Shown: positions 19,985 through 56,862, counted from the stretch's first letter. The stretch: DNA of 64,000 nt from Candidatus Woesearchaeota archaeon (GCA_018303655.1 JAGVXT010000021.1:18811-82810); one strand, 5' to 3'. Notes: a model not told the origin generated them from the sequence alone. A program made the numbers and translations.

Positions 19985-21466
19985 CTAAGACTGGGCTAAA
20001 GAAGCTTTTCCTTCATCGTTCTCTGAAGTAGAGGCTCTTATTTTCATATAATAATGCTCTTCAGCATCCTTAAATCTCAAATATCCCCCTATTCTTCTTA
20101 AACATGACTTCACAGTTTTTTTAAAACCCCATAACCGATAATAGTCTACTATAAGTCTTGCAAGAATCCACGGTCTTGCATAACAATAGGCTCTCAGTTC
20201 CTTTTCAATATCATTTCTTATCTGAATTAATTCTTCATCTGTAAAATCAGTCATATTAATTTTCAAATCAGAAGCATCTCCGAGATTTTCAACGTATTTA
20301 TCCTCATCATCAATTTTATTTTTCCATTCTTCCCACAATGGCGTGCCAGGAAATGCTGTTGCAAAGAAGAAATTTGCTGGTAAGCCTATTTCCTTACAAA
20401 AATCAACAGTTTCCCTTATTGTTTTCATATTTTCCCCGGGGTATCCAAGCATGAAAGTCCCTCCTGATTTCAAGCCCAGCCCCTTTATTTTCTTGTATAT
20501 TTCTTTGGCTTTCTGCAGATCTATCCCCTTCTTCATATTATCAAGTATTGTTTGGCTTCCACTTTCTAATCCATAAGATATAGAAAAGCAGCCTGCTTTT
20601 TTCATTTTTAAGATAAGGTCCTCATACAAATATTCCAATCTGGTGAGACAATGCCACTTGAGATTTAACTTTTGTTCTATCATTTTGTCGCACATCTCTC
20701 CAACAATCTTCCTGTTAAGCAGAAATAAATCATCAAAAAACATTATTCCATTTATGTTGTATTTTTCTTTTAGATGCTTCATCTCAGCTACAATGTTATC
20801 AGCGCTTCTAAATCTCGCTTTCTCGCCCATAAATGAATGATAGCAGAACTTACAAAGAAAAGGACATCCTCGTGTTATTATCATTGGCATCATTCTTCGA
20901 TTCTGTTCAACTTCTTGTGTGTTTTTAATATAAGTTTCAAAAGGGAACAAGTCCCATTCAGGGAAAGGAATATTGTCAATATTCTCTATTATTTTTCTTG
21001 GAGAAGTATAGATTATGTTTCCATTTTCCTTATATGCAAGTCCATCGACTTTTTTTAGAGCGATGCTTTTTTCCAGAGCATCGGCAAGTTCACAAACTGT
21101 TACTTCTGCTTCTCCAATCATTAATATGTCAGAAGAAGTATATTTAAAAAGAAGATGTGGAATCTCATTAGATATATTACCACCAATAACTATAGGCTTG
21201 TCCGGGTGATATTTTTTCAAAACCGGAGTAAGAAACTTTAAATATTTGTATAATGTTATAACTCCTCCAGTACATACCATATCATAATTTAATTCTCTTA
21301 TCTTATTTTCTACTTCACTTCTATCATAGCGGAAACCATTTATGTCCAGAACCTCAACCTTATGATTGGCTTTTCTCAGAACAGCAATTAGGTATGCCAT
21401 TCCAAGAGGTAATGTAAATGGTGGAAATCTTTCACTTATTGGGCAGTTGACTAAAAGTACTTTCAT
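19985..21466 (-). CDS. cobalamin-binding (class B) radical SAM protein
   Basis: N-terminal B12-binding-like domain (MKVLLVNCPIS...LPLGMAYLIAVL). Cluster motif RGCPFLCKFCYHS. Confidence 0.8.
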   Translation of the reverse strand: MKVLLVNCPISERFPPFTLPLGMAYLIAVLRKANHKVEVLDINGFRYDRSEVENKIRELNYDMVCTGGVITLYKYLKFLTPVLKKYHPDKPIVIGGNISNEIPHLLFKYTSSDILMIGEAEVTVCELADALEKSIALKKVDGLAYKENGNIIYTSPRKIIENIDNIPFPEWDLFPFETYIKNTQEVEQNRRMMPMIITRGCPFLCKFCYHSFMGEKARFRSADNIVAEMKHLKEKYNINGIMFFDDLFLLNRKIVGEMCDKMIEQKLNLKWHCLTRLEYLYEDLILKMKKAGCFSISYGLESGSQTILDNMKKGIDLQKAKEIYKKIKGLGLKSGGTFMLGYPGENMKTIRETVDFCKEIGLPANFFFATAFPGTPLWEEWKNKIDDEDKYVENLGDASDLKINMTDFTDEELIQIRNDIEKELRAYCYARPWILARLIVDYYRLWGFKKTVKSCLRRIGGYLRFKDAEEHYYMKIRASTSENDEGKASLAQS

Positions 21467-21674
21467 TCTTAAACATCTAAACCATCAAGCTTTTATCCAT
21501 AAATATAAATATTTTTGATAATATTATTTATGGAATTACTTGACATTATTGACACCAATATTTAAATTTTCCTATAGCAAAGTGTTGAGGTCACAAAAAA
21601 TTACAGTAAATCTTATAAATCAACTAAAATTCTCATGGATAAATCTATTAGATTGGGAAGGGAGGCTTATTTAT

Positions 21675-23390
21675 ATGCGGCAAACAAAAGCTACTGAAGA
21701 GGAAAAAGAGATATACATATTGGGTATAAATTATGTTGGTGCTGATGCTTCTGCATCTTTGCTTAAAAATGCCAGAATAATTGCATCGGCTATGGAAGAA
21801 AGATTCACAAGGATAAAAAAAGATAGAAGTTTCCCTACTAATGCGATAAACTTCTGTCTAAAATATGCAAATTTAACAATTGAAGACATAGACCTAGTTA
21901 CTTACTATATGATTCCTGAAGATTTGTTTAATAATCTTGTTATACATCACCTTGGAAAGTACTATCCCAAGTCAATTCCCCTATTTACATCTACTTTAAA
22001 TAGGGCCTTAAAAGTTAACAATGTTGAGAAAGAAATAAGAGAAAGATTAAACTATCATGGAAAGATATATTTCTGCGATCATCATTTGGCTCATATAGCT
22101 TCAAGTTTCTTCTTATCTGAGTTCGATGATGCAGCTGCAATATCTATGGATGGTTTGGGAGAAATTGCCAGCACTTTTATAGCTGATGTTGAAAATAATG
22201 AAATTAAAGTATTAAAGAGAGTAGACTTTCCTCATTCACTGGGAATGTTGTATAATGCAGTTACACACTATTTAGGATTTGATGCCGTCCAAGATCCTGG
22301 TAAAGTAATGGGTTTATCTTCCTATGGGGACCCTAAAAAGTATATAGATGAGTTTAGGAAAATTGTTATTCTTAAAGAAGATGGAACATATGAATTGGAC
22401 TTGAGTTATTTTGAATTTCCATTTAGAAGGGATGTCTGGATTTCTGATAAATTCATCAAGGTGTTTGGACCCAGACGAGAGCCAGATAGTCACCTTGAAA
22501 AAAGATATGAAGATGTAGCAGCTGCATTACAAGTCAGACTTGAGGATGTTTACTTCCACATGGTAGAGTATGCCAAGAAAGCCACTAATAAAGACTATCT
22601 TTGCCTTTCTGGAGGTGTAGCTTTAAACAGTGTAGCTAATGGGAGGATTCTAAAGAAAGAGATTTTTAAGGATATATATATTCCTCCGGCATGTGGAGAT
22701 GATGGTTTATCGATAGGGGCACCATTGTATTATAATTTTTGCGTCCTAAAAAATAAAAAAAGATATCCTTTGGAAACACCTTATTTAGGACCCGAATATA
22801 GCGATGAAGAGATTGTTAAAATAATTAAAAAATTTAATTTGAAATACTACAAGTCAGATAATGTATGCAAAGAAACTGCAAAGCTAATAGCAGACAACAA
22901 AATTATAGGATGGTTTCAGGGAAGAATGGAGATAGGACCAAGAGCTTTGGGAAACAGAAGCATTCTTGCAAATCCTGCTTTAAATAATGTCAAAGAATTA
23001 CTGAATTCGAGGGTGAAATTTCGTGAATCGTTCAGACCTTTTGCTCCGAGCGTTTTAGTTGAAGATGTAAAAGACTGGTTTGAATATGACCATCCTGTAC
23101 CATATATGCTGTTTGTGTTCAAGATAAATGAAGATAAACAAAAGTTAGTGCCGGGAATTACCCATATTGATGGTACTGGAAGACTGCAAACAGTAAGTAA
23201 GACAACCAATGAAAAATATCATAAGTTGATAAGCGAATTTAAGAGATTAACTGGCATACCAATGGTTGTTAACACGTCATTTAACATCAAAGGAGAACCA
23301 ATAATTGAAAGTCCTGTTAATGCTATCAAATGCTTCTTAGGAAACGGTTTGGATTATCTTGTTATGAGTGATTTTGTAATAAAGAAATAA
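21675..23390 (+). CDS. carbamoyltransferase, NodU/CmcH/TobZ family
   Basis: ILGINYVGADASASLLKN...HHLAHIASSFF...MGLSSYGDP are NodU-family motifs. GGAGG-like RBS 8 nt upstream of the ATG at 21675. The ORF track's upstream extension from 21540 is probably not translated. Confidence 0.75.
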   Translation: MRQTKATEEEKEIYILGINYVGADASASLLKNARIIASAMEERFTRIKKDRSFPTNAINFCLKYANLTIEDIDLVTYYMIPEDLFNNLVIHHLGKYYPKSIPLFTSTLNRALKVNNVEKEIRERLNYHGKIYFCDHHLAHIASSFFLSEFDDAAAISMDGLGEIASTFIADVENNEIKVLKRVDFPHSLGMLYNAVTHYLGFDAVQDPGKVMGLSSYGDPKKYIDEFRKIVILKEDGTYELDLSYFEFPFRRDVWISDKFIKVFGPRREPDSHLEKRYEDVAAALQVRLEDVYFHMVEYAKKATNKDYLCLSGGVALNSVANGRILKKEIFKDIYIPPACGDDGLSIGAPLYYNFCVLKNKKRYPLETPYLGPEYSDEEIVKIIKKFNLKYYKSDNVCKETAKLIADNKIIGWFQGRMEIGPRALGNRSILANPALNNVKELLNSRVKFRESFRPFAPSVLVEDVKDWFEYDHPVPYMLFVFKINEDKQKLVPGITHIDGTGRLQTVSKTTNEKYHKLISEFKRLTGIPMVVNTSFNIKGEPIIESPVNAIKCFLGNGLDYLVMSDFVIKK

Positions 23391-23418: not shown

Positions 23419-23925
23419 TTAATTAGTCTTTTCTTCTTTCAATATTATGTCTGCAACTTCTCTTATCGCCCCTTCGCCGCCTTTCTTTTTTGTGACAATA
23501 TTTGCGGCTTTTTTAACTTCAGGATATGAATCGCTGACAGCTATTCCGATGCCGGCATATTTTATGCATTCAATATCAGTTATGTCATTCCCGATAAAAC
23601 AGACTTCCTCTTTGCTTATGCTTCTTTTTGCAAGCTCTTTTTTCAAAATTGGTAATTTGTTATTTATTCCTTGAATGCATGGAATTTTTAGCTTGCCGCA
23701 TCGCGTTTTAACGACTTTATTCTTTTCCTTTGATATCACAATAACTTCAATGCCATTCTTCTTAAGCAATTCTATTCCCAGGCCGTCTGACCTGTTGCAT
23801 ATGACCGATTCCTTGCCGTTTTCATCAACAGTGACCTTATTATCAGTCATAACGCCATCAAAATCGCATGCCAAAAGTTTTATTTTAGCAGGATTTGCAG
23901 CTTTTTTGATTTTGTTTTCTTTCAT
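23419..23925 (-). CDS. HAD-IIIA phosphatase, KdsC family (ulosonate/nonulosonate-phosphate phosphatase)
   Basis: LLACDFDGVMTDNKV... matches the KdsC motif I (DxDGVLTD). Length 168 aa. Confidence 0.75.
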   Translation of the reverse strand: MKENKIKKAANPAKIKLLACDFDGVMTDNKVTVDENGKESVICNRSDGLGIELLKKNGIEVIVISKEKNKVVKTRCGKLKIPCIQGINNKLPILKKELAKRSISKEEVCFIGNDITDIECIKYAGIGIAVSDSYPEVKKAANIVTKKKGGEGAIREVADIILKEEKTN

Positions 23926-23931
23926 AACAGC

Positions 23932-24786
23932 TTACCAACAGGTTTTCCCCCCATCAATGACTAAATTTGTTCCTGTCATATAAGAAGATGCGTCTGAAAC
24001 AAGGAATACAATCGCTGCCTTGTATTCATCCTTATCAGCCATTCTTCCCAAAGGGATAAGATTCGCTAATCTTTTGACAAACCCTTCACTCTGATCATTA
24101 TAGACTCCTCCTGGTGATATGGAATTAACCCTTATGCCTTTTTTTGCCCAGTAAGTTGCGAGATACCTTGTCATTCCGATTAGCCCGGATTTGACAACAG
24201 AGTAGGATATTGGCTTGGTAAATTGCTCCTCTTCCTTTTGCCCAGGCTCTCGGTAAATCCTTTGGTCAGGTGCTATAAGCGCCAAATCAGAAGCTATATT
24301 CAAAATAACGCCTTTTCCCTGTTTCGTCATTTGCGCTCCTATAATTTTGCTGCATAAAAATGCGCCCGTTAATCCAACATCCATGTCCTTGTTCCACGTA
24401 CGCAGCGGAAAGTTTTCCAAGCGTGACTTTAATCCGGCAGATCTGCCTTCAACTTTAGGATTGTTTGCTGCATTATTAATCAGAATGTCAACTTTTTTGA
24501 ATTGCTTCATAACCTTTGACAATAATTTTTTTACTGCTTCTTCATTGGTAATATCACAATAATATGCTTTTGCCTTGACTCCAAAAACATTTGCAATTTC
24601 TTGAGCGCATTCCTGCGCTCTTTTTTCATCAATGTCAATCAATATGGGTATGCCTCCCATTTCTGCTATGGCCTCCGCATGTTTTGCTCCAAGCAAACCT
24701 GCTCCGCCAGTGATAACGGCTACCCTGCCATTTAATGCGAAAGCTTCTTTTACAGAATCTTTATGCTTAACCATTTTATTTTTCAT
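23932..24786 (-). CDS. SDR family NAD(P)-dependent oxidoreductase
   Basis: VAVITGGAGLLGAKHAEAIAEMGG (TGxxxGxG). Y...K catalytic pair (YSVVKSG). Confidence 0.7.
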   Translation of the reverse strand: MKNKMVKHKDSVKEAFALNGRVAVITGGAGLLGAKHAEAIAEMGGIPILIDIDEKRAQECAQEIANVFGVKAKAYYCDITNEEAVKKLLSKVMKQFKKVDILINNAANNPKVEGRSAGLKSRLENFPLRTWNKDMDVGLTGAFLCSKIIGAQMTKQGKGVILNIASDLALIAPDQRIYREPGQKEEEQFTKPISYSVVKSGLIGMTRYLATYWAKKGIRVNSISPGGVYNDQSEGFVKRLANLIPLGRMADKDEYKAAIVFLVSDASSYMTGTNLVIDGGKTCW

Positions 24787-25547
24787 AATGATCGTGTTTG
24801 TCCTCCGTCCACCACTAAACAGGCTCCAGTAATAAATGATGCTTTTTCAGATGATAAGAAAAGCACCGCATCTGCAACTTCTTCCGGTTTTCCAAAGCGC
24901 TGCATAGGAACTTCTGCGGCAATGTATTTCTTAAAGAACTCCTTACGTTTTGCTAAGTTCTTTTCCCAACTTCCGCCAGGGAAAAGGATATTTCCCGGAG
25001 CAACGGCATTCACGCGAATATTCTTATCTGCCACTTCTCTGGAAAGCTGTTTCATGGCATGCAGCAAGCCAGCTTTTGCAGCAGTGTAGGGAAGATGCCC
25101 TCCAACTGTCTCTATGCCTACTATGGAAGAAATAAAAACAATAGAACCTCCTTGTTTTGTGAGATATGGGATGGATTTGCTGGCAAGCATCATGCTTCCA
25201 ATAAGGTTTGTGGCAAGCATTGACTGCCAATCTTCAAATTTTAAATCAAATCCGTTCTTTCCTGTTCCGCTTCCAATATTGGCAATTACAATATTTATTT
25301 CACCAAAATGGGAAACTGCCTTTTTGAGGGCGCTGTCAATGGTTTTAGGATTAGCCATATCGCCGTGGATCTTCAGGACATCGTTCCCTTCGCCAAGTAT
25401 ATGGCGTGCTTTCTCGAGACTTTCTGAATCTCGCCCTGTGATGGCTACCTTTGCTCCTTCTTTTGCAAAAGCCTGTGCAATAGCAAGGCCTATACCTTTA
25501 CTGGAGCCTGCTATAAACACAACCTTATTCTTGAGTTTTAAGTCCAT
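24783..25547 (-). CDS. SDR family oxidoreductase (3-oxoacyl-ACP reductase-like)
   Basis: KVVFIAGSSKGIGLAIAQAF. YTAAKAG catalytic motif. 254 aa. Confidence 0.8.
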   Translation of the reverse strand: MDLKLKNKVVFIAGSSKGIGLAIAQAFAKEGAKVAITGRDSESLEKARHILGEGNDVLKIHGDMANPKTIDSALKKAVSHFGEINIVIANIGSGTGKNGFDLKFEDWQSMLATNLIGSMMLASKSIPYLTKQGGSIVFISSIVGIETVGGHLPYTAAKAGLLHAMKQLSREVADKNIRVNAVAPGNILFPGGSWEKNLAKRKEFFKKYIAAEVPMQRFGKPEEVADAVLFLSSEKASFITGACLVVDGGQTRSL

Positions 25548-25554
25548 TTTGTCT

Positions 25555-26397
25555 TTAGTTATAGTTGCAATATTTTAAAACAAATTTTTTATTATTTTTC
25601 GCATATGCCATAGTATCAATTGAATCATCACGTGCAGCTTGCAGTATAAAAGGCCTTGTGTATTTTGCAGCTTTAATCAGTTTAAAGCATGTGGTAAAAT
25701 CCACAGACCCTTGGCCCAAAGGAACGGTCTTTCCATTAAAAATTCTGTCCTTGATATGCACGCTTCCGATCCATTCTTTAAGTATTACCAATTCCTTAGA
25801 GGGGTTGTGCCCTAATGCTGCAGCATTTCCTGTGTCATAATTAAATTTTACCAGAGGATGTTTTATTTTCTCAAAAATGTGTTTCATTGCATATGGCTCC
25901 AAATCTGTTTCTAGATGAATCTCAATTTCAGCTTTTTCCGTATCATTCAAAACTGCATTTAATACATTTAAAAGGCTTGCCTGCTGCTTTTTTGTTTTTA
26001 GCGATGAAGCATCAACAAATGGCAGTACAATATATTTAATCTTCAACATTTTTGCACGTCCAATGAGCCAGCGCAGATGCTCAACAGCATCCTTGTTAAT
26101 ATCCCCATTTTCCTGGATTAATAATATTTTCATATAGTAATCTGCGCAGATAGAGATGACTTGAACTCCTGTTTCTTTTATTTTCTTTTGTATATGTGAT
26201 ATTCCCTCATCACTTTTTACCGGGTTTTTATCCTCGTTTGGCACTTCATAAATCCATTCTATGCAGTCAATTCCGGCTTCTCTTGCAAGGTCAAACTCCA
26301 GTTTCCATGTGTCAAAAGGAAACCACTGAATCATCTTTCCTCTTGGCGGTGAAAGCCGACCTTGCATAATTCCGATTGGATTTGGGAGTTTACTCAT
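25555..26397 (-). CDS. sugar phosphate isomerase/epimerase (xylose-isomerase-like TIM barrel)
   Basis: Length and pattern of a TIM barrel with conserved His/Glu/Asp (IEIHLETD, HIKD). Confidence 0.5.
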   Translation of the reverse strand: MSKLPNPIGIMQGRLSPPRGKMIQWFPFDTWKLEFDLAREAGIDCIEWIYEVPNEDKNPVKSDEGISHIQKKIKETGVQVISICADYYMKILLIQENGDINKDAVEHLRWLIGRAKMLKIKYIVLPFVDASSLKTKKQQASLLNVLNAVLNDTEKAEIEIHLETDLEPYAMKHIFEKIKHPLVKFNYDTGNAAALGHNPSKELVILKEWIGSVHIKDRIFNGKTVPLGQGSVDFTTCFKLIKAAKYTRPFILQAARDDSIDTMAYAKNNKKFVLKYCNYN

Positions 26398-26824
26398 TCA
26401 GCACCTCGACCAATTCTATCCATGCTCCGTTAGGGTCTCTGCAAAAAACAACTTTAGCATAGCCATCTGGAGAAGCCTCTGGAGAGGAATTGAATTTTAT
26501 CCCTTCTCCAAGCAATCGCTTATATTCTTTTTCCACATTATCCACTGTAAATGCTATATGGGAGCATCCTAATCCGGTAATATAGGTATTTTCTGGTTTT
26601 TTTGGATGTGATTTAAAATATAATAATTCAATTAAATTTCCATCTGGCGCTTTCATTTTTATTGTTCTTACTGAGGCATTTTTAAGGGACAGTACAGAAT
26701 CAATATAATTTCCGGATTCTAATTTATCCTTGACTATTTCAAATCCAAGCAAGTCTCTGTAAAAATGGAGTGATTTATCCAAATCACTCACAACTATGCC
26801 TGTATGCCTTATTGCCTTGATCAT
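26390..26824 (-). CDS. VOC/glyoxalase-bleomycin-resistance family protein
   Basis: IRHTGIVVSDLDKSLHFYRDLLGF is a typical VOC N-terminal module. 144 aa. Confidence 0.65.
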   Translation of the reverse strand: MIKAIRHTGIVVSDLDKSLHFYRDLLGFEIVKDKLESGNYIDSVLSLKNASVRTIKMKAPDGNLIELLYFKSHPKKPENTYITGLGCSHIAFTVDNVEKEYKRLLGEGIKFNSSPEASPDGYAKVVFCRDPNGAWIELVEVLNE

Positions 26825-28164
26825 TGCTTTTCAGCCTCTTCTATAGCTTCTTCAAAAACTTCCAATCCTTCATCTAAAGCATTGTCTGGTATTGTCAGCG
26901 GAGGTCCTATCTTTATAGACTCCCTTCCTGTATGAACCAACAAAAGCCCTTTTTCCATGGCTTTGTAACACACCTTTGTGGCAAAGTCTGCATCGGGCTT
27001 TTTTGTCTTTGGATTGATAAATAATACGCCAGCCAATAATCCTTTGCCTAAAACATAAGATATTCTATTAGGATATTTTTCTTTAATTTCATTTAATCTG
27101 GAATGCAAAATTTTTCCCTTGCGCTCGGATTCTTTGATTAAATTTTTGTCAAATAGTTCTTCGAGAACAGCCAACCCTGCTGCACAACAGACTGGATTAG
27201 CGGAATGCGTGCTGCTCATAGAGCCAACATCTGGTATATCCATTACATCTTTTCTTCCCAATACCGCCGATAGTGGAAGGCTTGAGCTAATCCCTTTCCC
27301 GCAGCATATAATATCCGGCTCGATATCATAATGCTGGTATGCAAATAGCTTGCCGGTTCTTCCAAATCCTCCCTGAATATCATCAACACAAATCAAAATA
27401 TTATGCTCTTTGGCAAATTTGGAAAGTTCTTGAATATAATCGCTTGGATAAAAAACAGCTCCCCATCCTATATAGGCTTCAAGCATGAACCCAACTATGT
27501 CTTTATTGATATTAACTTTCTCTTCTAATTTTTTGATGTCATGCCTAAATTTTTCTTTGCCTGATATTTTGCCATTAAGCACCCATGGATATGGAAATTC
27601 CAGCCTGTGTACATTTGGGTCGTCAAAGCCTATCCATGCTCTTGACTTTTGGTTTCCACCCAGCATTTGCGCCCCCATGGTTCTTCCATGCATGCTGCCC
27701 TCAAAGGAGATTATTCCGGGTTTTCTCTTTCCAACTTTATGGGAGTACATGCGCATTAATTTTATTGCGCATTCCGTAGCTTCAGTGCCAGATGATAATA
27801 AAAAGGCTTTTTCAAATTGTTTTGGCACAGATTTTATAAGTTTTTTGATATACCTTGCTCTGATTTCTGTTATGAATGTATAGCTATGTAAAAGGTCATT
27901 GTCAATAATGCTGCTGATTGCCTTTTTTACTTTGGGATTTGAATGCCCGACATTAGCCACGAAAATAGTTGAGGTGAAGTCTATCCAGCAATTCCCCTCT
28001 TTATCCCAGACTTGGAAATTCTTTGCCTTGTCCCATACAACAGGCAATTGCCCATGCATGGACCTGACTTCATATTTTTTTAAGTTATTGATTAGGTTCA
28101 TAGCATTGGAGTTGGGGATTTTGGTGACTATTCTCCTGAATTTTGTTTTAATCATTTTAATCAT
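26821..28164 (-). CDS. class III PLP-dependent aminotransferase
   Basis: 447 aa. LSSGTEATECAIKLMR and DDIQGGFGRTGKLFA (catalytic Lys region) are class III motifs. Confidence 0.75.
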   Translation of the reverse strand: MIKMIKTKFRRIVTKIPNSNAMNLINNLKKYEVRSMHGQLPVVWDKAKNFQVWDKEGNCWIDFTSTIFVANVGHSNPKVKKAISSIIDNDLLHSYTFITEIRARYIKKLIKSVPKQFEKAFLLSSGTEATECAIKLMRMYSHKVGKRKPGIISFEGSMHGRTMGAQMLGGNQKSRAWIGFDDPNVHRLEFPYPWVLNGKISGKEKFRHDIKKLEEKVNINKDIVGFMLEAYIGWGAVFYPSDYIQELSKFAKEHNILICVDDIQGGFGRTGKLFAYQHYDIEPDIICCGKGISSSLPLSAVLGRKDVMDIPDVGSMSSTHSANPVCCAAGLAVLEELFDKNLIKESERKGKILHSRLNEIKEKYPNRISYVLGKGLLAGVLFINPKTKKPDADFATKVCYKAMEKGLLLVHTGRESIKIGPPLTIPDNALDEGLEVFEEAIEEAEKQ

Positions 28165-28192
28165 AATGACCTTGTATTTTTGTAATCTGATT

Positions 28193-28906
28193 TTAGGATT
28201 TTGTATAAAGGATGCCCTTTTTTTCTATTATGAATTGTAAATACTCAAAATCTTCCGGCTGGTCAACTTCCGCAGAGAAGGGGGTTATAAAGGCCAATAT
28301 TTTTGGCCCATGAAGGTTGTTGTGCTTCATTATAAAGTCTGGTACGAGCACATCAACATAGCCATTAGGATGGTAAGCTGGCGGAAAGCTTTGTCTTGGC
28401 AGGTTATAATATTCCGGCCTGGTGTCATCAGGAAACATGCCCACTAGAAATCCATTATTGATTTCGAATGCCTTGCGCGGAGATTCAGCCATTTCATGAA
28501 CTGATCGCAAAGATGATGCCTTATCATTGTTTTTTAAGGCCTTGATCGCCTTGTCAATTAATGATGGCTCCCTTAAAGGTGTTGTAGGCCTGAGGTGCAC
28601 CAGCAACTCCGGCAGACTGCCTTCCTTTTTTTTATGCCATTCTAAAAAATGGGATATAAATTCTATATCTGTAGACGTATCAATAGCCAACTCTCTGGGC
28701 CTCAAAAATGGGACCTCTGCCCCGTATATTTTGGCTATGTCTGCAATTTCCTGGGAATCCGTTGAGACTATTACCCTGTCAATATTTTTTGATCGCTTCG
28801 CTGCAATAATCGAATAAGCTATTAATGGGTAGCCTCCAAGAGGTTTGATATTCTTCTTTGGAATCTTTTTTGACCCGAACCTAGCAGGGATTATTGCAGT
28901 TATCAT
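28193..28906 (-). CDS. neuA: acylneuraminate (nonulosonate/ulosonate) cytidylyltransferase
   Basis: MITAIIPARFGSKKIPKKNIKPLGGYPLIAYSI is the CMP-NeuAc/CMP-Kdo synthetase N-terminal signature. Confidence 0.8.
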   Translation of the reverse strand: MITAIIPARFGSKKIPKKNIKPLGGYPLIAYSIIAAKRSKNIDRVIVSTDSQEIADIAKIYGAEVPFLRPRELAIDTSTDIEFISHFLEWHKKKEGSLPELLVHLRPTTPLREPSLIDKAIKALKNNDKASSLRSVHEMAESPRKAFEINNGFLVGMFPDDTRPEYYNLPRQSFPPAYHPNGYVDVLVPDFIMKHNNLHGPKILAFITPFSAEVDQPEDFEYLQFIIEKKGILYTKS

Positions 28907-28908
28907 TG

Positions 28909-29943
28909 TTAATCTAAATTTTCTACCTTCCTTAATTTTTTAAGGATTGGGATCTCTGACTCGTAAATTCTTTTTTTCCCATCCCCCAGATATAAGGGCA
29001 TCAATCTTGCCACCTCGCAAATGATCTCTATGCCTTTTCTTTCCAGGCTTGCAGACTGGTCGCTTCCGAACATGGATCTGTCCAGAGTTATATGGCGCTC
29101 TACCATGCAAGCTCCCAATGCTATGGCAATCAAAACCGGGTACACCCCTGGCTCATGGCCGCTGTAGCCAACAGGGCAATTGAAGAATTTCCTGAAGGTT
29201 TTTATGACATTTAAGTTATGCTCATTTGGCGGAGTGGGGTATGTTGAAGTGCAGTGCATGATGATTAGATTATTTTCCCCTAAAATATTTACAGCCTTTT
29301 GTATCTGCTCCATTGTGCTCATCCCAGTAGACAATATAATTGGCTTGTTGGTTGATTTTACTTTCATTAAAAGTTTTTTATTAGTCAGCATTGCTGATGC
29401 AATCTTATGGCATGACACATCAAATTTTTCCAGAAAATCAATGCTTTCTTCATCCCAGGCAGATGCAAACCAGATGATATTTTTTTTCCTGCAGTACTCA
29501 TCAATTTCCTTGTATTCATCATAGCCAAATTCTAATGCGCGCTTCAAGTCACCATTGGTTTTGCCAAAAGGGCTTTCTCTGGACATTTCCAGTTCTTCTT
29601 TTGGGTAAACTTTCTCAATAGTCCTCTTTTGAAATTTTACCGCATCACATCCGGATTCAGCTGCAATATCAATCAATTTTTTGCAAATTTCCATGTTTCC
29701 ATTATGGTTTATTCCAATTTCAGCTGTGATAAAAACTGGTTGGTCATGACCCACAAGCTTGCTTCCAATCATAACAGGCTTAGGGTTTCTTTCTTCGAGA
29801 TACATCTTCTCATAAATTTTCCAAGCCTGGGAAATTGCCTGAGTTTTGTTGGGGATAATCCCCTGGCTGTTGTTCACTAATTCAGTAATTTTTCTATTTA
29901 ACTCTTCTGGAATTGTTATTGACTCATATCCTTCTTTTGGCAT
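28909..29943 (-). CDS. neuB: NeuB-family PEP-condensing nonulosonate/ulosonate synthase with N-terminal RHH-like extension and no C-terminal SAF domain
   Basis: ITAEIGINHNGNMEICKKLIDIAAESGCDAVKFQK...ILSTGMS...HCTSTYPTP...VGYSGHE is the NeuB TIM barrel. The about 60 N-terminal residues SITIPEELNRKITELVNNSQGIIPNKTQAISQAWKIY fit a beta-alpha-alpha ribbon-helix-helix pattern. The protein ends right after the barrel. Confidence 0.8.
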   Translation of the reverse strand: MPKEGYESITIPEELNRKITELVNNSQGIIPNKTQAISQAWKIYEKMYLEERNPKPVMIGSKLVGHDQPVFITAEIGINHNGNMEICKKLIDIAAESGCDAVKFQKRTIEKVYPKEELEMSRESPFGKTNGDLKRALEFGYDEYKEIDEYCRKKNIIWFASAWDEESIDFLEKFDVSCHKIASAMLTNKKLLMKVKSTNKPIILSTGMSTMEQIQKAVNILGENNLIIMHCTSTYPTPPNEHNLNVIKTFRKFFNCPVGYSGHEPGVYPVLIAIALGACMVERHITLDRSMFGSDQSASLERKGIEIICEVARLMPLYLGDGKKRIYESEIPILKKLRKVENLD

Positions 29944-29965
29944 TCATATCACCCAAACCTTGTGG

Positions 29966-30025
29966 GTACGGTACGTATATTTAAATATATCTGTTTTTTA
30001 GAGAAATTCTGTAAAAGTACCGTAC
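29966..30025. promoter_or_regulatory. inverted repeat GTACGGTACG ...(41 bp)... (A)GTACCGTAC flanking a palindromic TATA-like box (TATATTTAAATATA) in the neuB / methyltransferase divergent promoter
   Basis: Seen directly. The arms are GC-rich in an AT-rich intergenic region. The left arm lies about 23 bp upstream of the neuB start codon. Confidence 0.45.
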
Positions 30026-30119
30026 TTTAAATAACAATTTGATGTTAAAAGGAAGGGGCGGTTTTCTCAAATACTAAACAAAATCGCTTTCAATAAAATT
30101 TATATATTAAAGGGGACTG

Positions 30120-31182
30120 ATGGTTGGCATGCTAAATAAAAGATATGAATTTGATGGAAAACCGACACTTAAATTAAATAAGCTCCAGCTGAAAAATAAA
30201 AAGCTTGTAGAAGATAAAATTAATTCAAAAGAATACACCTTTGAAAAGGTTAATTGCGTTATTTGCAATGGCTCTGATTTTGAATTATTGGCAGAGAAAG
30301 ATAGATATGGTTTATATGTTCCTACAGTAATTTGCAAAAAATGTGGTTTACTTCAAACAAATCCGAGAATGAATCAGGAATCCTACAATAAGTTTTATGA
30401 TTCAAATTATAGGAGATTATACGAGGGAGGGGAAAACGAAGAGAACATTGCATCCTTCTTTAATAAACAAGTATCTCATGGAGAGTCAATCCTAATGCTT
30501 ATAGAGAGAGAGAGCAAATAATAGATTTGAGAATAAGTTTGTTGTTGAAATTGGAGCAGGTGCAGGAGGCATACTGCAGGCTTTTAAGAACAGAAACAAC
30601 AAAGTCTTTGGCTTGGATTTAGGAACAGAGTACATTAAATTTGGAAAACAAAAGGGCATAAACTTAGAGATAGGAACCATTAAGGAACTAAATAAATTAA
30701 AAGAAAAGCCTGACTTAGTAATTTATTCTCATGTTTTAGAACATATATTAAATCCCTATGAAGAACTAAGAAGATTAAGGAAATACCTAAAGAAAGACAG
30801 CCTAGTCTATATTGAAGTCCCAGGCGTTAAAAACTTAGAGCAATCCTACAACCAGGATTTCCTCAAGTATCTCCAAAATGCACATGTGTATCACTTTTCA
30901 TTGAAAACTTTAGGAAATCTGACAAAGAAAGCAGGTTTTGATTTAATTTATGGAAATGAAAGAATTAATTTAATATTAAGAATAGGGAAAGCGAATAACC
31001 ACTTCCATAGCGATTACAAAGAAACAATTAGCTTTTTGATGAATCTCGAAAGAAGAAGAAAAAATCCACTCAACATGCTTAGAATAAAGAGTCAGGTTTT
31101 TGATTTCCTAATATCCCTAAGCAGAAGAACTAGCACTTTTAAAATAGGAAGAAAAATATATCATTCAATTAAACGTAAATAA
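30120..31182 (+). pseudogene. class I SAM methyltransferase with N-terminal Cys4 zinc ribbon, split by a frameshift at an (AG)6 tract
   Basis: Frame 0 (30120-30521) encodes the CxxC...CxxC zinc-ribbon N-terminus and ends ...IERESK*. Frame +1 opens at 30505 and encodes motif I VVEIGAGAGG followed by ...VIYSHVLEHI.... The junction lies in agagagagagag (30503-30514). (AG)7 or (AG)4 would restore one ORF of about 355 aa. Confidence 0.6.
30503..30514 (+). repeat. (AG)6 dinucleotide tract at the frameshift site
   Basis: Seen directly. Confidence 0.9.
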
Positions 31183-31341: not shown

Positions 31342-32832
31342 TTAGGTAGCTCTAAGCCTCCTTAATAATTCTTTTACTTCAGAAACAGTCACCAATCCCC
31401 ATATGAATAAAGATATAACATAAATTGCTCCTGAAACTAATAATATAAGCGGTATTTTAACAAATAAATTCATGGTCATTTGTAGATTGAGGTAGTTCAC
31501 TATTAAAAGGAAGACTATAGAAATGGCAAGATTCTTTATCCATCTAATATACGGTATCTGTATAAGATTTTTCTTTTTAAGAATATAAAGTCCTAAAAGC
31601 GCCATTGATAGGTAAGATATTGCAGTTGCTACTGCAGCTCCCGTAAATCCGAATTTTGGTATTAAGAGAAAATTGAAAAATATGTTTAATATTGCACTTA
31701 TTCCTATTATTTTCGTATTAATACCTGGTTCTCCTATACCAGAAAAAATTCCGCCATTTATTCCCTGAAATGTATGGAACATGATGCCTATTGCCAATAT
31801 TTTCAGAGCCATGCTTCCAATCACATAATTGCTGCCATAAAATAATTCCAGAATTATACTGGAAAATATGATTAATAATGATAAAACTGGCAAGATTAAA
31901 ATCAAAGAAAATCTGTATAATAACCCTATTCCCTTTTTTAGCTCCGTTTTCATTCCTTTATTCCATAATTCAGAGGTAATAGGTAAAAGAACATATCCAA
32001 TAGCACTGGTTATATACCATGTAAGCATTGCAGTGGGTAATACCGCACTGTAGATGCCAACTTCTTCCAACCCTCTAAAATAAGTGATCATTAACTGGTC
32101 AGAATATCCTATCACTATTCCTACTGAAGAAATTAAAATTACTTGTATTCCGTACTTTCTCAGCCTCTTGAATAATGGCTTATCCCAAAAAAATTTATTT
32201 TTAGTAAACGCATCAAAATTTTTATATAAAAACGGAAAGTAAACAAAAAGCAGGATTAAAGAGGTAATAATGTATGCTATAACGGGGCTTAATATGCCAT
32301 AATCCATTTTAAAAAATATTAAGGATATGGCAAGTATCAATATCATTCTTATGATATCTACGCTTGAGAATAGTCCCATCTTTTGGAATCCTTGAAATGA
32401 TGATTTTATTAAAAGTACAAAACTATCAACGAACAAACTTATTGCCATTAATATCAGAACTATCGGTCCAAAGTCGTGTTTTAAAAAATTGACGCCTAAA
32501 TATTTTGCAAAAATCAAAATAATAATTAGAAATATAATATTATTTACTAATAAAACGATGCTAGCGTATATTATTGAATTTTTTATATTCTGGAATTCTG
32601 ACTTTGCTGTAAATTTAGGGATAAAAAAAGCCAAAGCGGTATCTAACCCCAAACCTTTAAAAAAACTAAAGAATCCCAAAAACGCTATTGTTGCGTAGAA
32701 AAGCCCGAATTCTTCAACAGTCAAATTTCTTGCAAAAAAAATCCTAACAAAGTATCCAATAAAAGCCGCGACTATAGAAATCACAAAAACTATTACTACA
32801 TTTTTCAAAGCCTTTTTTGTGTAATTAGTCAT
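31342..32832 (-). CDS. Wzx-like oligosaccharide flippase (MOP/polysaccharide biosynthesis protein family)
   Basis: 496 aa with about 12-14 predicted TM helices. Sits in a glycan-locus context. Confidence 0.7.
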   Translation of the reverse strand: MTNYTKKALKNVVIVFVISIVAAFIGYFVRIFFARNLTVEEFGLFYATIAFLGFFSFFKGLGLDTALAFFIPKFTAKSEFQNIKNSIIYASIVLLVNNIIFLIIILIFAKYLGVNFLKHDFGPIVLILMAISLFVDSFVLLIKSSFQGFQKMGLFSSVDIIRMILILAISLIFFKMDYGILSPVIAYIITSLILLFVYFPFLYKNFDAFTKNKFFWDKPLFKRLRKYGIQVILISSVGIVIGYSDQLMITYFRGLEEVGIYSAVLPTAMLTWYITSAIGYVLLPITSELWNKGMKTELKKGIGLLYRFSLILILPVLSLLIIFSSIILELFYGSNYVIGSMALKILAIGIMFHTFQGINGGIFSGIGEPGINTKIIGISAILNIFFNFLLIPKFGFTGAAVATAISYLSMALLGLYILKKKNLIQIPYIRWIKNLAISIVFLLIVNYLNLQMTMNLFVKIPLILLVSGAIYVISLFIWGLVTVSEVKELLRRLRAT

Positions 32833-32861: not shown

Positions 32862-34718
32862 TTAAGCAACCTCAAATATTATCATTCCATTATTGCTGAA
32901 AACGGATCTGAACTTGCTTGATTTTATAAGCCCCTGAATCTTGTTATTTGTTTCATTTGCTCCAAACTTTCTAGCGGTTTGGCCGTCAATCACAATGTAT
33001 TCATACTGGCCTTTCTTAAGCCATTCATAATTCTGCTCAGCTGTCAGGTTAAATCCATTGCGCTGATAGGTTCTGGTGTCATCGCACCAATGGCATATAA
33101 ACTTATCAAGGCCAAGTATCAGCGCATTGTTCGAAAATGTGAATGTTTTTTTTCCAGGCGCTATGTTTTCCTTAAACCAAATGTAGCCCTGGATTTCCTC
33201 GTTTGATGTCCAAAATCCTCCCGGAGGCCATAAGGCTGTGTTTACTGTATACTTAGGAATAAAAGATGTTGTGATGATGCCATAAAACAAAATTCCAAGC
33301 ATGAGCAGCGAAGCTGCAGTTATTGCCGCATTTGATTTTGTAATGCTTTTAACAAGGCTTTTGGCAAAATTTTCTATCAAGCTTATAGCCTCTCCGGACA
33401 ATAATGAGACAGGGATTGCAAGCAGCATCCATGCCCTGAACGGGGATAATTTTATTGGAAACCTGGCAGCATTGACTGCATAAAAAGCAAAAGCAAGCCA
33501 CAGTAATGTGACAAGCCTGCTGTAATTTTCCTTCCTGAACATTTCCTTGTATTTTGAAACAAGAAAAATAATGCCTATTGCTGTTAATAGGGAAAGAATA
33601 ACTCCTATCCCTATTGGATTATTTATCATGTTAACTCCCTTGGCAAAAATAAAATCAGATAAATTGTAAATTCTGTCTCCGGTGCCTGCTATGCCTACAA
33701 CACTGGGATTTGTGCCTAAAAAAGTTCTTACAAGACCATTAAAGCCATAAGCCTTTATCATCGGCATCCACCATAGAATGAAAGACAGCAATAAGCCGGA
33801 AAATCCCGCAAGAAATTCGTACATAAAAAATTTCCTTTCAACTAAAATTCTGCCAATGAAGTATATTAGGAGAAATAAGCCAAAATAAGTGCTGTGGGTT
33901 GGGGATGAAGTCAATGTTGGCGCAATAACTATTGCAGATGCCATCCACCATGCTTTGTCATCTTTTATTTTTTCAATAGCATAAAATGAAACAAAGAACA
34001 ATGGCATTGTCAAGGCGATTGCCCATATAAAATGGCTTAAGAAAGATGGTATGGCAAATAGTGAGAATGCTGCAAATAATGCTTTCTTTGGGCTGTTTGT
34101 GAATGCTTTCGCAAAAAAATAGAAGAATATGATGCTTAATGACACAATTAATGCATTGAAAAACTTGAGAGTCCAGTAAACTGAATTATTTGACTGGTGC
34201 AGAATTCCCATGAGCATATCATATGCAGGGGGATAAGGGTCTATGTAATGGAAAGGGTTTCCAACATTTCGTGCAAAAACGGTCTTTTCAATGGATACAT
34301 ACTTGACGCCCATGGCATGGCTCCATGAATCATCATCCTCTAAATAGGGATATGCAAAAGCCCCTTTAGCATTCATATAAAGAGAAGCAGAAAATAAGAT
34401 AAGCGCTATTAGTGGAAATATGCTTATTGAAAAGTCTTTTGAGTTTTTAAAAATAATTCTGCCTTTCTTGAAATCTTTAAATATCCTGATAAAAATCAGC
34501 AAAATGCTTGCCAACAGGAATATCCTCCAGTCCAGGGGAATTCCGATAAGGTTGAGCAGCAAGCCAAAGGATATCATAGCTCCAAGCCCAATCCCAATCC
34601 TCATTATGTTTCTCTCTAAAAAGTCCTCTGACTCCCTGGCTAATAAGCCAGCACCTAGTCCAAATCCCCATGTGTACAAAAAAAATAAGATTATGCTTAA
34701 TGCAAACATCAATAACAC
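32862..34718 (-). CDS. GT-C-like integral membrane protein (multi-TM N-terminal domain + C-terminal soluble domain); candidate membrane glycosyltransferase/polymerase
   Basis: 618 aa. About 12 TM helices. Acidic loop motif YLEDDDSWSHA after TM1. No WWDYG motif seen, so not a confident AglB/STT3. Confidence 0.4.
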   Translation of the reverse strand: MLLMFALSIILFFLYTWGFGLGAGLLARESEDFLERNIMRIGIGLGAMISFGLLLNLIGIPLDWRIFLLASILLIFIRIFKDFKKGRIIFKNSKDFSISIFPLIALILFSASLYMNAKGAFAYPYLEDDDSWSHAMGVKYVSIEKTVFARNVGNPFHYIDPYPPAYDMLMGILHQSNNSVYWTLKFFNALIVSLSIIFFYFFAKAFTNSPKKALFAAFSLFAIPSFLSHFIWAIALTMPLFFVSFYAIEKIKDDKAWWMASAIVIAPTLTSSPTHSTYFGLFLLIYFIGRILVERKFFMYEFLAGFSGLLLSFILWWMPMIKAYGFNGLVRTFLGTNPSVVGIAGTGDRIYNLSDFIFAKGVNMINNPIGIGVILSLLTAIGIIFLVSKYKEMFRKENYSRLVTLLWLAFAFYAVNAARFPIKLSPFRAWMLLAIPVSLLSGEAISLIENFAKSLVKSITKSNAAITAASLLMLGILFYGIITTSFIPKYTVNTALWPPGGFWTSNEEIQGYIWFKENIAPGKKTFTFSNNALILGLDKFICHWCDDTRTYQRNGFNLTAEQNYEWLKKGQYEYIVIDGQTARKFGANETNNKIQGLIKSSKFRSVFSNNGMIIFEVA

Positions 34719-41126: not shown

Positions 41127-41723
41127 ATGCTGAAATTTTTCATTAAAGCCGTAACAAGAATTCTCTCCACTGATTTTTTTGCAAAGCTTCTGTTTGGGAT
41201 TGACTGCAGCAAAAGCACAGCTGGCTATCAGATAGGATTTTCAACAATTCTGATGAAAAAGGCGCTTAAAAAACTTGTAAAAAGCAATGACAAGGTGCTT
41301 GACATCGGCACTGGCGCATTGGCCATACACGGCATCTGGATAAGAAAGAATATTGGCGCTGATGTGGTTGCTACTGAGATAAGCGATAAATATATAGAAA
41401 GCGCGAAAAAGGTTGCAAAATATAATAATATTAACATCAAGATACTAAAATCAGACCTGTTCAAAGGGATAAAAGGCAGATTTGACTGGGTTATATTCAA
41501 TCCGCCATTCAGAAACAGGAAAGATTCCAACGGGTACAGGATAGTTGAAAGGCTTCTGAAGGATGCCCCGGAAAACACAAGGCTGATGATTGTTGTAAAT
41601 GCCTTTTACGCAAACCAAAAAAGGATTGAAGAAACCATTAAGAATAATGACTATGCGATAAAAGATACCATAACAAAATTTCTTAATCCGTCAAAAGTCT
41701 ATATAGTTGAAAAACAGGCTTAG
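41127..41723 (+). CDS. class I SAM methyltransferase with NPPF motif (HemK/RsmC-like small MTase domain)
   Basis: VLDIGTGALAIHG (motif I) and VIFNPPF (motif IV). Confidence 0.6.
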   Translation: MLKFFIKAVTRILSTDFFAKLLFGIDCSKSTAGYQIGFSTILMKKALKKLVKSNDKVLDIGTGALAIHGIWIRKNIGADVVATEISDKYIESAKKVAKYNNINIKILKSDLFKGIKGRFDWVIFNPPFRNRKDSNGYRIVERLLKDAPENTRLMIVVNAFYANQKRIEETIKNNDYAIKDTITKFLNPSKVYIVEKQA

Positions 41724-43909
41724 GATATTACCACGCGCTTTGCATTAGAAGGTATACCATACATAATTAGGTTCTTTCCAATAGGTTTGTATTGAACATC
41801 TGCATAATTTTTATTGTCTGTGGTGAACTGCATTTTATTTATTTTTTTCCTTATATGCTGCATTAAGGTGATGTCGGTATAAAAATAATTAGGCAGATTA
41901 TTTTCCAGCTCTATTGAAAACCTGCTTCCCTGCTTTTTTACCCTGCTTATAGCCAATGTTTCCCTTGCTTTATAGTATTTTATTATATCATCAGCGCTGG
42001 CAAACCATACGTCACTGTATTTCTGGAAGAAGTTAAACATGCCAGTAACGAATTTTGGGCATTCTTTATCATATTCCGGAACATGCCCTGATATAATCAT
42101 GTAGTCGCAGCCGCTTCTGTATCTTCTGATGAACTCTTGCCTGACCTTGGTGCAGTTTTTTTTATCAAACATCTCCCCTATGCAAACTCCCCAGAAAAGC
42201 TTTGCAGGAAGGAAAAAATCCAAAGGGGCATTAGGAATAGGCCATTCTCTTATCCATTGGATATACTTTGAGGCTGAAAATGCAACTTTCTCCATAGTGC
42301 CTTTTTCAGTTGCAATGCCGTATGGGGCAGCATAGGAAAAAACATGGGACAATGGGATTTCATTGCGCCATTTGCCAATCCATATTCTCTCAGAGCTTTG
42401 TATTTCGCTTGTTATCGCATCTGCATCGAGCCTGTAAATTCTTGGATGCGTATTTGTATGCAATAAATATGACAAATCCTTATTTTGAAATCTTTTTCTC
42501 AACGGCTTGCCTATTCCTAAAAAGCAAAATAAGGTGCTTAATAATGTCGAGAGCAAAGGATATTCTTTCAGATAAAATATTCTATTGCCGATATAGCAAA
42601 AGCGGTGATAGCCTATTCCCAAAGTCCTTGTGGCTATTGCCATTTGAACCCATCTCGGCATTTTTCCTTTTGCCCTGTAAAGGTAATCGTTTATCTTTGC
42701 GTCATCGGTGATTGCGTTAAATGCCATTTTTTTATTTGACTTCCATCTTGTTATGTAGGCGTTTGAAACAGGTTCTGAGCTCAGATGCACAATATTTCTT
42801 GTCTTAGGCTGGTAAGAGAAAATAGAAGCTATATCATCTATATTTTTTTTTTCAGTGTCAAAGTACATTCCTATTTTCCAGTAGGCTCTTAATGAATGTG
42901 CTGGATAATACCCCTGCGGCTTTCCGGTATACTCTTTTTTGTCAATCTGTTGCCAGTAAGGCCTTTTTGGCTCTGACATTGAATGCCAACTGGCTCCGAA
43001 GAAATTCTTTCCTTTTTCCATGTGAATTCCGTCATTCGGCAGCGCCAGATAAGGGCACATTGCAAAAAATGCATTTTTATCTTTAAAGCAGGCATAGTAA
43101 GGATGTTTTAATGTTGTTATATTTCCCCCATCCGTTTTATTTGAATAAAAAGAATTGGTAGATAATTCTTTATGGATATTATCAAGCCTGAACCAAACCA
43201 AAGAGTTCAGAAATTCAACCTTGTTTCCATCCATGTCCTTTGCTTTGTCGTATTCCATCTCTATCTCTGCTTTTGCAATCATATTTTTGCCGTTGGAGCT
43301 CCAGAAATAATATGTTATTGCTATCGGCAAATATCCTTCCTTTGCGCATTTGTTTCCAAAAATCTTCATTGTTCCGCTTATTTTAATTATCTTGATGATG
43401 TTGGAATCAGAAATAATGCTGAAGTTTGTATCTTGCATGTATTTTTGGAGAAATAAATTTCCTCCGGAAGTGACTAATTGCAGAGGCCCGTACTCATTTT
43501 TATTGATTTTTATTTTTTCTATAGAATAGCCGTTTTTTTCAAATAGAATTGATATTTTTTTTGTTGAAATAGCAAGATAAGAATTATTTTTCATTTCAAT
43601 TTTTTTTTTAGGAATTGCATATTTGCTTGGATTTTTTGATATACTATAAAAAATCCGGATGTATTTTATATTGCTTCTATTCGCTATGATTGCTATATTA
43701 TTTTGACTTATATTATTGGAATAATTCAATTTTTGGGCATAATCTTCCTTGTCTATTAAATCAAACAGCAGTTCTCTGCCGTTGTTGTCAAGAACCTTTA
43801 TGCTGCCAAAATCCGTATTCTCAGGAAATTTCAATTCATCAAAACTTACCAATAATAAAGAATTTTTAATTATTGGATAAACATTTAAAATTATACTTTC
43901 TTTTTTCAT
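41720..43909 (-). CDS. large hypothetical protein (729 aa), possibly glycan-modifying hydrolase/deacetylase-like
   Basis: No decisive motif. The C-terminal ...ISGHVPEYD...VWFASADDIIKYY loosely resembles deacetylase-type barrels and the C-terminus of the 15432-16982 protein. Confidence 0.3.
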   Translation of the reverse strand: MKKESIILNVYPIIKNSLLLVSFDELKFPENTDFGSIKVLDNNGRELLFDLIDKEDYAQKLNYSNNISQNNIAIIANRSNIKYIRIFYSISKNPSKYAIPKKKIEMKNNSYLAISTKKISILFEKNGYSIEKIKINKNEYGPLQLVTSGGNLFLQKYMQDTNFSIISDSNIIKIIKISGTMKIFGNKCAKEGYLPIAITYYFWSSNGKNMIAKAEIEMEYDKAKDMDGNKVEFLNSLVWFRLDNIHKELSTNSFYSNKTDGGNITTLKHPYYACFKDKNAFFAMCPYLALPNDGIHMEKGKNFFGASWHSMSEPKRPYWQQIDKKEYTGKPQGYYPAHSLRAYWKIGMYFDTEKKNIDDIASIFSYQPKTRNIVHLSSEPVSNAYITRWKSNKKMAFNAITDDAKINDYLYRAKGKMPRWVQMAIATRTLGIGYHRFCYIGNRIFYLKEYPLLSTLLSTLFCFLGIGKPLRKRFQNKDLSYLLHTNTHPRIYRLDADAITSEIQSSERIWIGKWRNEIPLSHVFSYAAPYGIATEKGTMEKVAFSASKYIQWIREWPIPNAPLDFFLPAKLFWGVCIGEMFDKKNCTKVRQEFIRRYRSGCDYMIISGHVPEYDKECPKFVTGMFNFFQKYSDVWFASADDIIKYYKARETLAISRVKKQGSRFSIELENNLPNYFYTDITLMQHIRKKINKMQFTTDNKNYADVQYKPIGKNLIMYGIPSNAKRVVIS

Positions 43910-46653: not shown

Positions 46654-46775
46654 ATAACTCGCTCTATGGTCATTCTTTAATAGAGTTTCGTATTTAAAGT
46701 TTTCTAAAACCTGCTGCAGCTGGTGCCAGTGATAAAACCAAATCTTTAAATAAAAAGCAGTCGCTTCTTTGGGCA

Positions 46776-56822: not shown

Positions 56823-56862
56823 GGTGGACAGCTTTTCCAGTTTCCCACACATAAGTGAAGTA

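Follow-up and report, generated by a model that had tools for sequence, protein, structure and literature searches.

A NeuB-family synthase of a Candidatus Woesearchaeota archaeon carries an N-terminal extension that sequence profiles and structure prediction identify as a bona fide CopG-type ribbon-helix-helix (RHH) domain, and two copies of a palindromic site bracket the TATA-like element of its own promoter. This fusion, RHH-NeuB, is encoded in a stretch of 64,000 nucleotides that was analysed as a whole and is referred to here as the window (Table 1). With a probability that we put at roughly 0.75, RHH-NeuB is an archaeal PutA-like trigger enzyme that autoregulates its own ulosonic-acid operon; binding, the sign of regulation, oligomeric state, and ligand are inferred. 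Two criteria for a trigger enzyme, an enzyme and a DNA-binding domain on one polypeptide and a cognate operator at the promoter of its own operon, are met, the former by a single continuous ORF and the latter by a conserved box pair whose binding by the protein is inferred. The bacterial enzyme PutA has an N-terminal RHH domain, acts as an autogenous repressor, and couples this repressor function to proline availability (PMC5293562).

Table 1. Features of the RHH-NeuB gene, its promoter and its putative operon (window coordinates)
Feature	Position	Strand	Basis or remark
RHH-NeuB gene	28909..29943	-	ORF, 344 aa
N-terminal RHH domain and linker	29776..29943	-	Predicted RHH, residues 1-49; conserved K/R-N-P-K-P linker, residues 52-56
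NeuB-family PEP-condensing TIM-barrel domain, without SAF	28909..29775	-	Residues 57-344 and stop
Shine-Dalgarno-like GGTGAT	29948..29953	-	5 nt before ATG (29943), read from sequence
Proximal operator box GTACCGTAC (gene strand)	29966..29974		Between TATA box and gene start; putative operator, no binding data
TATA box TTTAAATA	29978..29985	-	Within palindrome ATATTTAAATAT (29977-29988); conserved island in promoter alignment
Distal operator box GTACGGTAC	30017-30025		Putative operator, no binding data
Distal box, extended 15-bp palindrome AAAGTACGGTACTTT	30014..30028
Cytidylyltransferase	28193-28906	-	CTP_transf_3, PseF/KdsB-like matches
Class-III aminotransferase	26821-28164	-	Pfam/NCBIfam
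VOC/glyoxalase protein	26390-26824	-	Pfam/NCBIfam
Xylose-isomerase-like TIM barrel	25555-26397	-	Weak similarity to L-ribulose-5-P 3-epimerase
SDR	24783-25547	-	Pfam/NCBIfam
SDR	23932-24786	-	Pfam/NCBIfam
KdsC/YrbI-type phosphatase	23419-23925	-	TIGR01670, 127 bits vs cut-off 106.95

A NeuB-family synthase with an additional N-terminal domain

The protein is annotated at its source as 'N-acetylneuraminate synthase family protein'. The only Pfam family found in it is NeuB (PF03102; residues 90-324, E 2.5e-77, 260 bits against a cut-off of 22.1), and the Pfam column for all homologues likewise lists PF03102 only. The motifs EIGINHNG, KFQKR, GYSGHE, and ERHIT are invariant among 52 homologues, so that both requirements for NeuB-family membership, the PF03102 TIM barrel and the conserved motifs, are met; a C-terminal tail, SE.P...KLR, is conserved in the TIM-barrel domain of RHH-NeuB. 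Foldseek matches the catalytic part best to 6ncs, a 285-aa SAF-less Leptospira NeuB, then to PseI and NeuB, with SpsE among the top matches. Membership in the N-acetylneuraminate synthase and pseudaminic acid synthase equivalogs is not met: the scores lie far below the cut-offs (258.9 against 399.65 for the NeuB model TIGR03569, 206.7 against 340.25 for the PseI model TIGR03586), and the sugar product is therefore probably a different one. The match to the NeuB model covers positions 1-277 of 329, which indicates that the SAF part is missing, and that to the PseI model ends at 267 of 327. The Pfam scan detects no SAF domain either, and both collections bear out the absence of this C-terminal domain that the preliminary description had reported.

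The sequences of solved NeuB, PseI, and SpsE proteins align with the window protein only from its residues 53-56 onward, starting at their own residues 4-14, and about 55 N-terminal residues are thus extra. An extension of about 60 residues had been claimed; the extension stands, with its length corrected to about 53-56 aa. A mis-called start or a fused small ORF is ruled out, as one continuous ORF joins the enzyme and the RHH domain in more than 45 homologous clusters, with the MPKEGY start conserved. The database search that the preliminary description had proposed places this architecture of about 343 aa in dozens of 90%-identity clusters, and the sources, where named, are DPANN archaea (Pacearchaeota, Woesearchaeota, and Nanoarchaeota MAGs). 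In four bacterial loci (L006, L010, L023, and L063) an extension seemed to appear in tblastn; it runs through stop codons or unrelated upstream genes, and these bacteria consequently lack the RHH domain.

The N-terminal consensus is MPKEGYxSITIPxxLxxxIxxFVxxSxGxxxNKxQAIxQAWxxYE. The predicted fold has the beta-strand, helix, helix topology of about 45 residues that is expected of an RHH domain, with an extended strand at residues 6-12, a helix at 13-25, and a second helix at 33-49. An alignment-based AlphaFold2 model of the monomer has a pLDDT of 93.4 for the full protein and 91.5 for the domain alone; in it residues 1-12 are extended, and the second helix reaches residue 49 or 52. A fold search with the domain model returns a CopG-family protein, the omega repressor, and RelB in lower ranks, with the archaeal-virus regulator SvtR and Arc further down and scattered non-RHH matches from rank 16. 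Foldseek gives the same enrichment of RHH proteins at TM scores of 0.6-0.77, with E-values that fall short of significance, as the length of only 56 residues would lead one to expect.

Single-sequence searches are weak. Pfam and NCBIfam scans of the 60-aa extension give sub-threshold noise and a weak match to DUF7120. The window protein itself has no Pfam match to RHH_1 (PF01402), the family matched by the largest number of members (4 of 33 homologues, best E 1.5e-4). The best PDB match of the N-terminal profile is CopG, aligned over nearly its whole length with an E-value of 0.05. A metagenome scan with the same profile recovered, besides more RHH-NeuB genes (L083-L094), about 20 small stand-alone genes of 43-123 aa that start MPK[KE]G[YF]xS[IV]T; the JGI name for such proteins is 'predicted CopG family antitoxin'. 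The fused domain aligns with these stand-alone MPKKGY-type proteins in hhalign with 98.7% probability (E 1.6e-16), and three of them exceed the RHH_1 gathering score, and it is on this transitive link that membership of the fused domain in RHH_1 rests. CopG and the stand-alone archaeal CopG-type RHH proteins are its best sequence relatives. The RHH-like fold first proposed from the residue pattern is thus upheld by the AlphaFold2 prediction, with pLDDT values above 90, by two fold searches, and by profile homology to stand-alone CopG-type proteins.

The most conserved positions of the domain are K3, G5, S8, T10, K33, A40, and W41. The conserved polar residues S8 and T10 alternate along the strand, and, by alignment with CopG, the segment K3-T10 makes up the N-terminal arm together with the strand positions that face outward. 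K33 is located at the start of helix 2, the part of the fold that contacts the phosphate backbone in RHH-DNA complexes. The stand-alone proteins lack an enzyme; from them the fused domain is distinguished by a longer loop between its helices and by the helix-2 motif NK[TS]QAIxQAW.

An exhaustive search with the N-terminal profile returned, besides NeuB fusions (some of them fragments), mostly short matches of 44-111 aa and one 324-aa match with four matched stretches; no other enzyme fusion partner of this RHH domain emerged from this search, in which only a sample of the short matches was inspected. Two long proteins of repeat type (P0156 and P0197), with seven to eight short matched stretches each, are probably spurious. 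One 235-aa protein (P0157) combines the same RHH domain and the first NeuB hairpin with an unrelated C-terminal domain and is probably an assembly chimera or a different fusion. In another NeuB fusion (P0209) the RHH domain resembles the classical stand-alone type and lacks the QAW motif.

Paired palindromic boxes at RHH-NeuB promoters

The inverted repeat reported upstream of the gene at 29966-29975 / 30016-30025 exists; a repeat finder places its arms at 29966-29979 and 30012-30025 (14 nt, 86% complementary), with an exact 9-nt core of GTACGGTAC / GTACCGTAC. Each arm alone is a 9-bp palindrome of the form GTAC-N-GTAC, and the feature is better seen as two copies of a palindromic site, GTACNGTAC, 51 bp apart from centre to centre. 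The palindromic TATA-like element around which the repeat was said to lie is also present, and only its central placing fails: just 3 nt separate it from the proximal box, upstream of which it is located. Read along the gene strand, the distal box comes first and is followed by the TATA box, the proximal box, GGTGAT, and the ATG. The transcription start is predicted, from the position of the TATA box alone, at about 29955-29960. GGTGA elements like that of the window also occur in five other RHH-NeuB loci (L083, L085, L086, L028, and L090). Beyond the two promoter copies, GTACNGTAC does not occur in the 64 kb, and no second box pair was found there; the 11 other TACNGTA cores of the window are isolated, at a density about or below chance, and GTAC itself is depleted (90 seen against 217 expected).

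Other short elements adjoin the boxes. A TATA-like octamer directly precedes each box of the window on the gene strand (TATTTAAA at 30026-30033 and TTTAAATA), and the octamers and boxes together make a larger inverted repeat. In L083 and L084 a TATA-like element likewise adjoins the distal box and could be a second or divergent promoter.

The comparison across genomes comprises all 16 non-redundant RHH-NeuB loci available (the window, L083-L093, L028, and L116, L118, and L119 from divergent subgroups), with protein identities that go down to about 50%. In all 16 the operon promoter has a pair of TAC-N-GTA boxes, in most cases GTACNGTAC, the distal box at -60 to -110 and the proximal box at -8 to -47; the TAC-N-GTA core is present in 15 of 15 tabulated promoters. 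In L092, where RHH-NeuB comes second in its operon after a cytidylyltransferase gene, the box pair (spacing 52) is upstream of the latter. The TACNGTA core occurs 33 times in 1,950 nt of upstream sequence and 17 times in the remaining 133,721 nt of the loci, a 133-fold enrichment. A MAFFT alignment of 15 promoters contains only three conserved islands, the distal box, the TATA element, and the proximal box; the rest is variable.

The spacing between the boxes falls into two classes, one of 51, 51, 51, 52, 52, 52, and 53 bp and one of 62, 62, 62, 63, 63, 63, 64, 64, and 64 bp, which differ by one helical turn. These classes were set after the data had been seen, and the sequences are related; the phasing is kept although the surrounding intergenic DNA has diverged beyond alignment. 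From the distal box to the start of the TATA-like element the distance is 31-34 nt in 12 of the 15 loci and 23 nt in the other three, and from the TATA-like element to the proximal box it is 2-4, 12-15, or 23 nt. Of the two sites the distal box is the better, and its palindrome is extended, with the consensus A-G-TAC-N-GTA-C-T-T-T, and the proximal box is often GTACNGTAA. In the leaderless variants L116 and L119 the proximal box abuts the ATG. Autoregulation of the sugar operon, raised as a possibility in the preliminary description, gains support from this footprint of a phased box pair around the TATA element in 16 of 16 loci, from which binding is inferred. The same description had accepted that a widespread, purely structural extension would refute it. 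Half of this condition is fulfilled, as the extension is indeed widespread in DPANN archaea; it is, however, always accompanied by the operator pair, which argues for DNA binding.

Upstream of each of the stand-alone RHH genes (L096-L115) lie several boxes, TACNGTA or GTACNGTAC, with 35 cores in 1,950 nt (130 nt upstream of each gene) and 8 in the other 33,766 nt, a 76-fold enrichment. Autoregulation is typical of RHH proteins. In the stand-alone family a pairing of RHH beta-strand and DNA recognition site thus looks to be readable, as far as sequence comparison goes. Negative controls came from a genome-collection scan with the full-length alignment, which gave almost only RHH-less short forms from bacteria. 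The 79 bacterial loci with RHH-less short NeuB (499 kb) contain eight relaxed matches to the boxes, none of them within 600 nt upstream of the gene, and the 200 nt upstream are free of them in three low-GC RHH-less loci whose operons are similar. All of these controls are bacterial and none is archaeal, so lineage and presence of the RHH domain are confounded.

Proposed autoregulation by RHH-NeuB and competing explanations

The simplest reading of this co-occurrence would be that the fused RHH domain binds the boxes, and the enzyme very probably acts as the on-off switch of its own operon; there are no binding data. CopG-type RHH domains of the enzyme oligomer would pair into dimers (only the monomer has been modelled), and their two-stranded beta-sheet, with the signature MPKEGYxSITI, would insert into the major groove of GTACNGTAC; the alternating conserved polar residues of the strand (S8 and T10) and the occurrence of palindromic boxes together with the domain lend this indirect support. 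The two boxes, separated by 5 or 6 helical turns and bracketing the TATA box, would be presented on one face of the DNA; an oligomer with two RHH dimers could fill both cooperatively, bending or looping the TATA region. Box occupancy would hinder TBP, TFB, or RNA polymerase, giving negative autoregulation; because the proximal box comes after the TATA box and before the start, and abuts the ATG where transcripts are leaderless, its occupation should block polymerase recruitment. A substrate or pathway product held in the catalytic domain would probably alter the geometry, relieving or strengthening binding, and ligand occupancy of this domain would couple expression to pathway flux. The chances seem evenly balanced for the broader proposal that, in the genome-reduced DPANN archaea, a biosynthetic enzyme is the dedicated transcription factor, clamping phased GTACNGTAC operators around the TATA box until released by a metabolite, and that the pair of MPKxGYxSxT and TACNGTA holds family-wide; DNA binding and switching are inferred here as well.

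Archaeal metagenomes contain stand-alone proteins that share both the signature and the boxes, which leaves room for the boxes to be operators of a separate MPKKGY-type RHH protein encoded elsewhere in the genome, the fused domain then being mainly a dimerization or allosteric module. Regulatory N-terminal domains of that kind are known on comparable enzymes: PEP-utilizing TIM-barrel enzymes that carry them are among the fold matches (1rzm, 3nvt, and 5j6f), and the related DAH7P synthases carry N-terminal ACT or chorismate-mutase domains. This explanation is nevertheless improbable, given that the window encodes no stand-alone RHH or other protein with an MPKxGY-type signature, that in 16 of 16 loci the fused domain is accompanied by the box pair, which RHH-less operons lack, and that K3, S8, and T10, the residues expected to face DNA, are together with K33 the most conserved, a conservation for which pure dimerization gives no reason. 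It is still possible that a stand-alone RHH protein with this beta-strand, from another part of the genome, is the real binder or a further one. Slightly less favoured again is activation or dual regulation by RHH-NeuB, in which the distal box recruits or stabilizes TBP/TFB and the proximal box has merely a modulating role. In favour of this, the distal box is the better palindrome of the two, and its distance to the TATA element is the most constant feature of these promoters; its centre, however, is about 40 bp from the TATA box, and known archaeal activator sites lie next to the BRE, nearer the TATA box than this. The proximal box, between TATA and start or against a leaderless ATG, occupies the typical repressor position for archaeal regulators.

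We give very little credence to an origin of the repeat that is unlinked to the N-terminal domain, be it an RNA element (a hairpin or riboswitch-like structure of the 5'-UTR) or a chance or restriction-site feature. The two arms do pair in the predicted fold, and GTAC is a common restriction site that is depleted in the window; yet each arm is independently palindromic, and conservation and phasing across 16 loci exclude chance. The distal arm, being upstream of the TATA box, should not be transcribed. The predicted fold of 29944-30035 on the minus strand is no better than that of shuffled sequences (z -1.13), and Rfam finds nothing there; an RNA-level element is rejected.

Autoregulation by the fused RHH domain, the reading preferred here, rests on a principle that is already known, in PutA as an RHH-enzyme fusion that regulates its own operon and in NikR as an RHH domain joined to a ligand-binding oligomeric core. 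PutA of E. coli and Salmonella is trifunctional, with an N-terminal RHH domain followed by proline dehydrogenase and P5C dehydrogenase, and differs from RHH-NeuB in being bacterial and in its unrelated chemistry (a flavoenzyme, as opposed to PEP-aldose condensation). Its switch is flavin reduction with membrane binding, operator sequence and layout differ, and no sequence relationship to RHH-NeuB is detectable beyond the fold (11% identity). NikR has a C-terminal tetrameric ligand-binding sensor domain that, unlike the partner in RHH-NeuB, is not an enzyme; its half-sites are about 16 bp apart, in contrast to the 51-64 bp between the RHH-NeuB boxes. Beta-strand signature and TACNGTA boxes in the own promoter are common to RHH-NeuB and the stand-alone archaeal MPKKGY subgroup, and the NeuB-family TIM barrel is shared with NeuB, PseI, and Kdn-9-P-type synthases, among them the SAF-less 6ncs; no solved or bacterial NeuB form examined carries an RHH domain.

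In the literature searched (RHH with NeuB, DPANN nonulosonic acids, and archaeal RHH-enzyme fusions) no description of the RHH-NeuB architecture was found, in agreement with the preliminary description, which knew of none; nor were the NeuB partner, the DPANN setting, the operator, or the phased layout of two boxes and TATA element. To our knowledge no archaeal RHH-enzyme example has been described. In DPANN archaea, which are uncultured, the regulation of transcription is almost uncharted. In this locus regulator, operator, promoter layout, and pathway can be read from sequence, and a single recombinant protein together with 90 bp of DNA would suffice to test the proposal. If it is true, a trigger enzyme on the PutA principle exists in Archaea, and the recognition pair of MPKxGYxSxT with TACNGTA would help to predict the regulons that many small archaeal RHH proteins control. 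Current annotation overlooks the fused domain and is corrected by this finding for a family that comprises dozens of protein clusters or more.

The inferred sugar pathway and its surroundings

The rest of the putative operon (23419..28906) lies on one strand, with genes that overlap or are tightly packed, and related gene sets are present in orthologous loci. The criterion for a Kdo/Kdn-type pathway, a KdsC/YrbI-type phosphatase and a CMP-ulosonate cytidylyltransferase in the operon, is met. By inference, RHH-NeuB most likely condenses PEP with a phosphorylated sugar in the first committed step, and the product is most likely a CMP-activated, amino-modified Kdo/Kdn-like ulosonic acid for surface glycans rather than Neu5Ac. 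SAF-less short NeuB enzymes are widespread in bacteria and have similar operon partners (KdsC-type phosphatase, SIS isomerase, cytidylyltransferase, and aminotransferase). RHH-less relatives adjoin KdsC-type phosphatases and SIS isomerases or are fused to SIS domains; in P0083, P0085, L123, and L125 the short NeuB is fused to, or lies beside, SIS sugar-phosphate isomerase domains. Aminotransferase, glyoxalase, methyltransferase, and KdsC-type genes are its partners across bacteria, and these partner sets suggest a widespread, uncharacterised ulosonic-acid pathway.

The whole window is, as far as its predicted genes tell, a glycan-biosynthesis island. It includes three B12-binding radical SAM enzymes (13443-14963, 19985-21466, and 45163-46776, all on the minus strand), a carbamoyltransferase (21540-23390), and a flippase-like protein (31342-32832); large ORFs without a Pfam match include 342-2657, 8087-10999, 32862-34718, and 41720-43909. 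The gene divergent from RHH-NeuB (30120-31182, plus strand) is a single gene for a SAM-methyltransferase with a Zn-ribbon, and a frameshift near 30500-30520 splits its ORF. The SAM motif VVEIGAGAGG lies in a third frame between the two ORFs, and the gene is split in the same way in the gene calls of two other assemblies (L001 and L002). A 5S rRNA gene is located at 56823-56966 on the minus strand (Rfam RF00001, 55.7 bits); it stands alone, as the window has neither a 16S nor a 23S rRNA next to it. Over the whole window the 4-bp palindromes CTAG, ACGT, TCGA, GATC, and GTAC occur at 0.16-0.42 of expectation and CGCG at 0.31, a depletion that may reflect restriction-site avoidance; TGCA and AGCT are over-represented.
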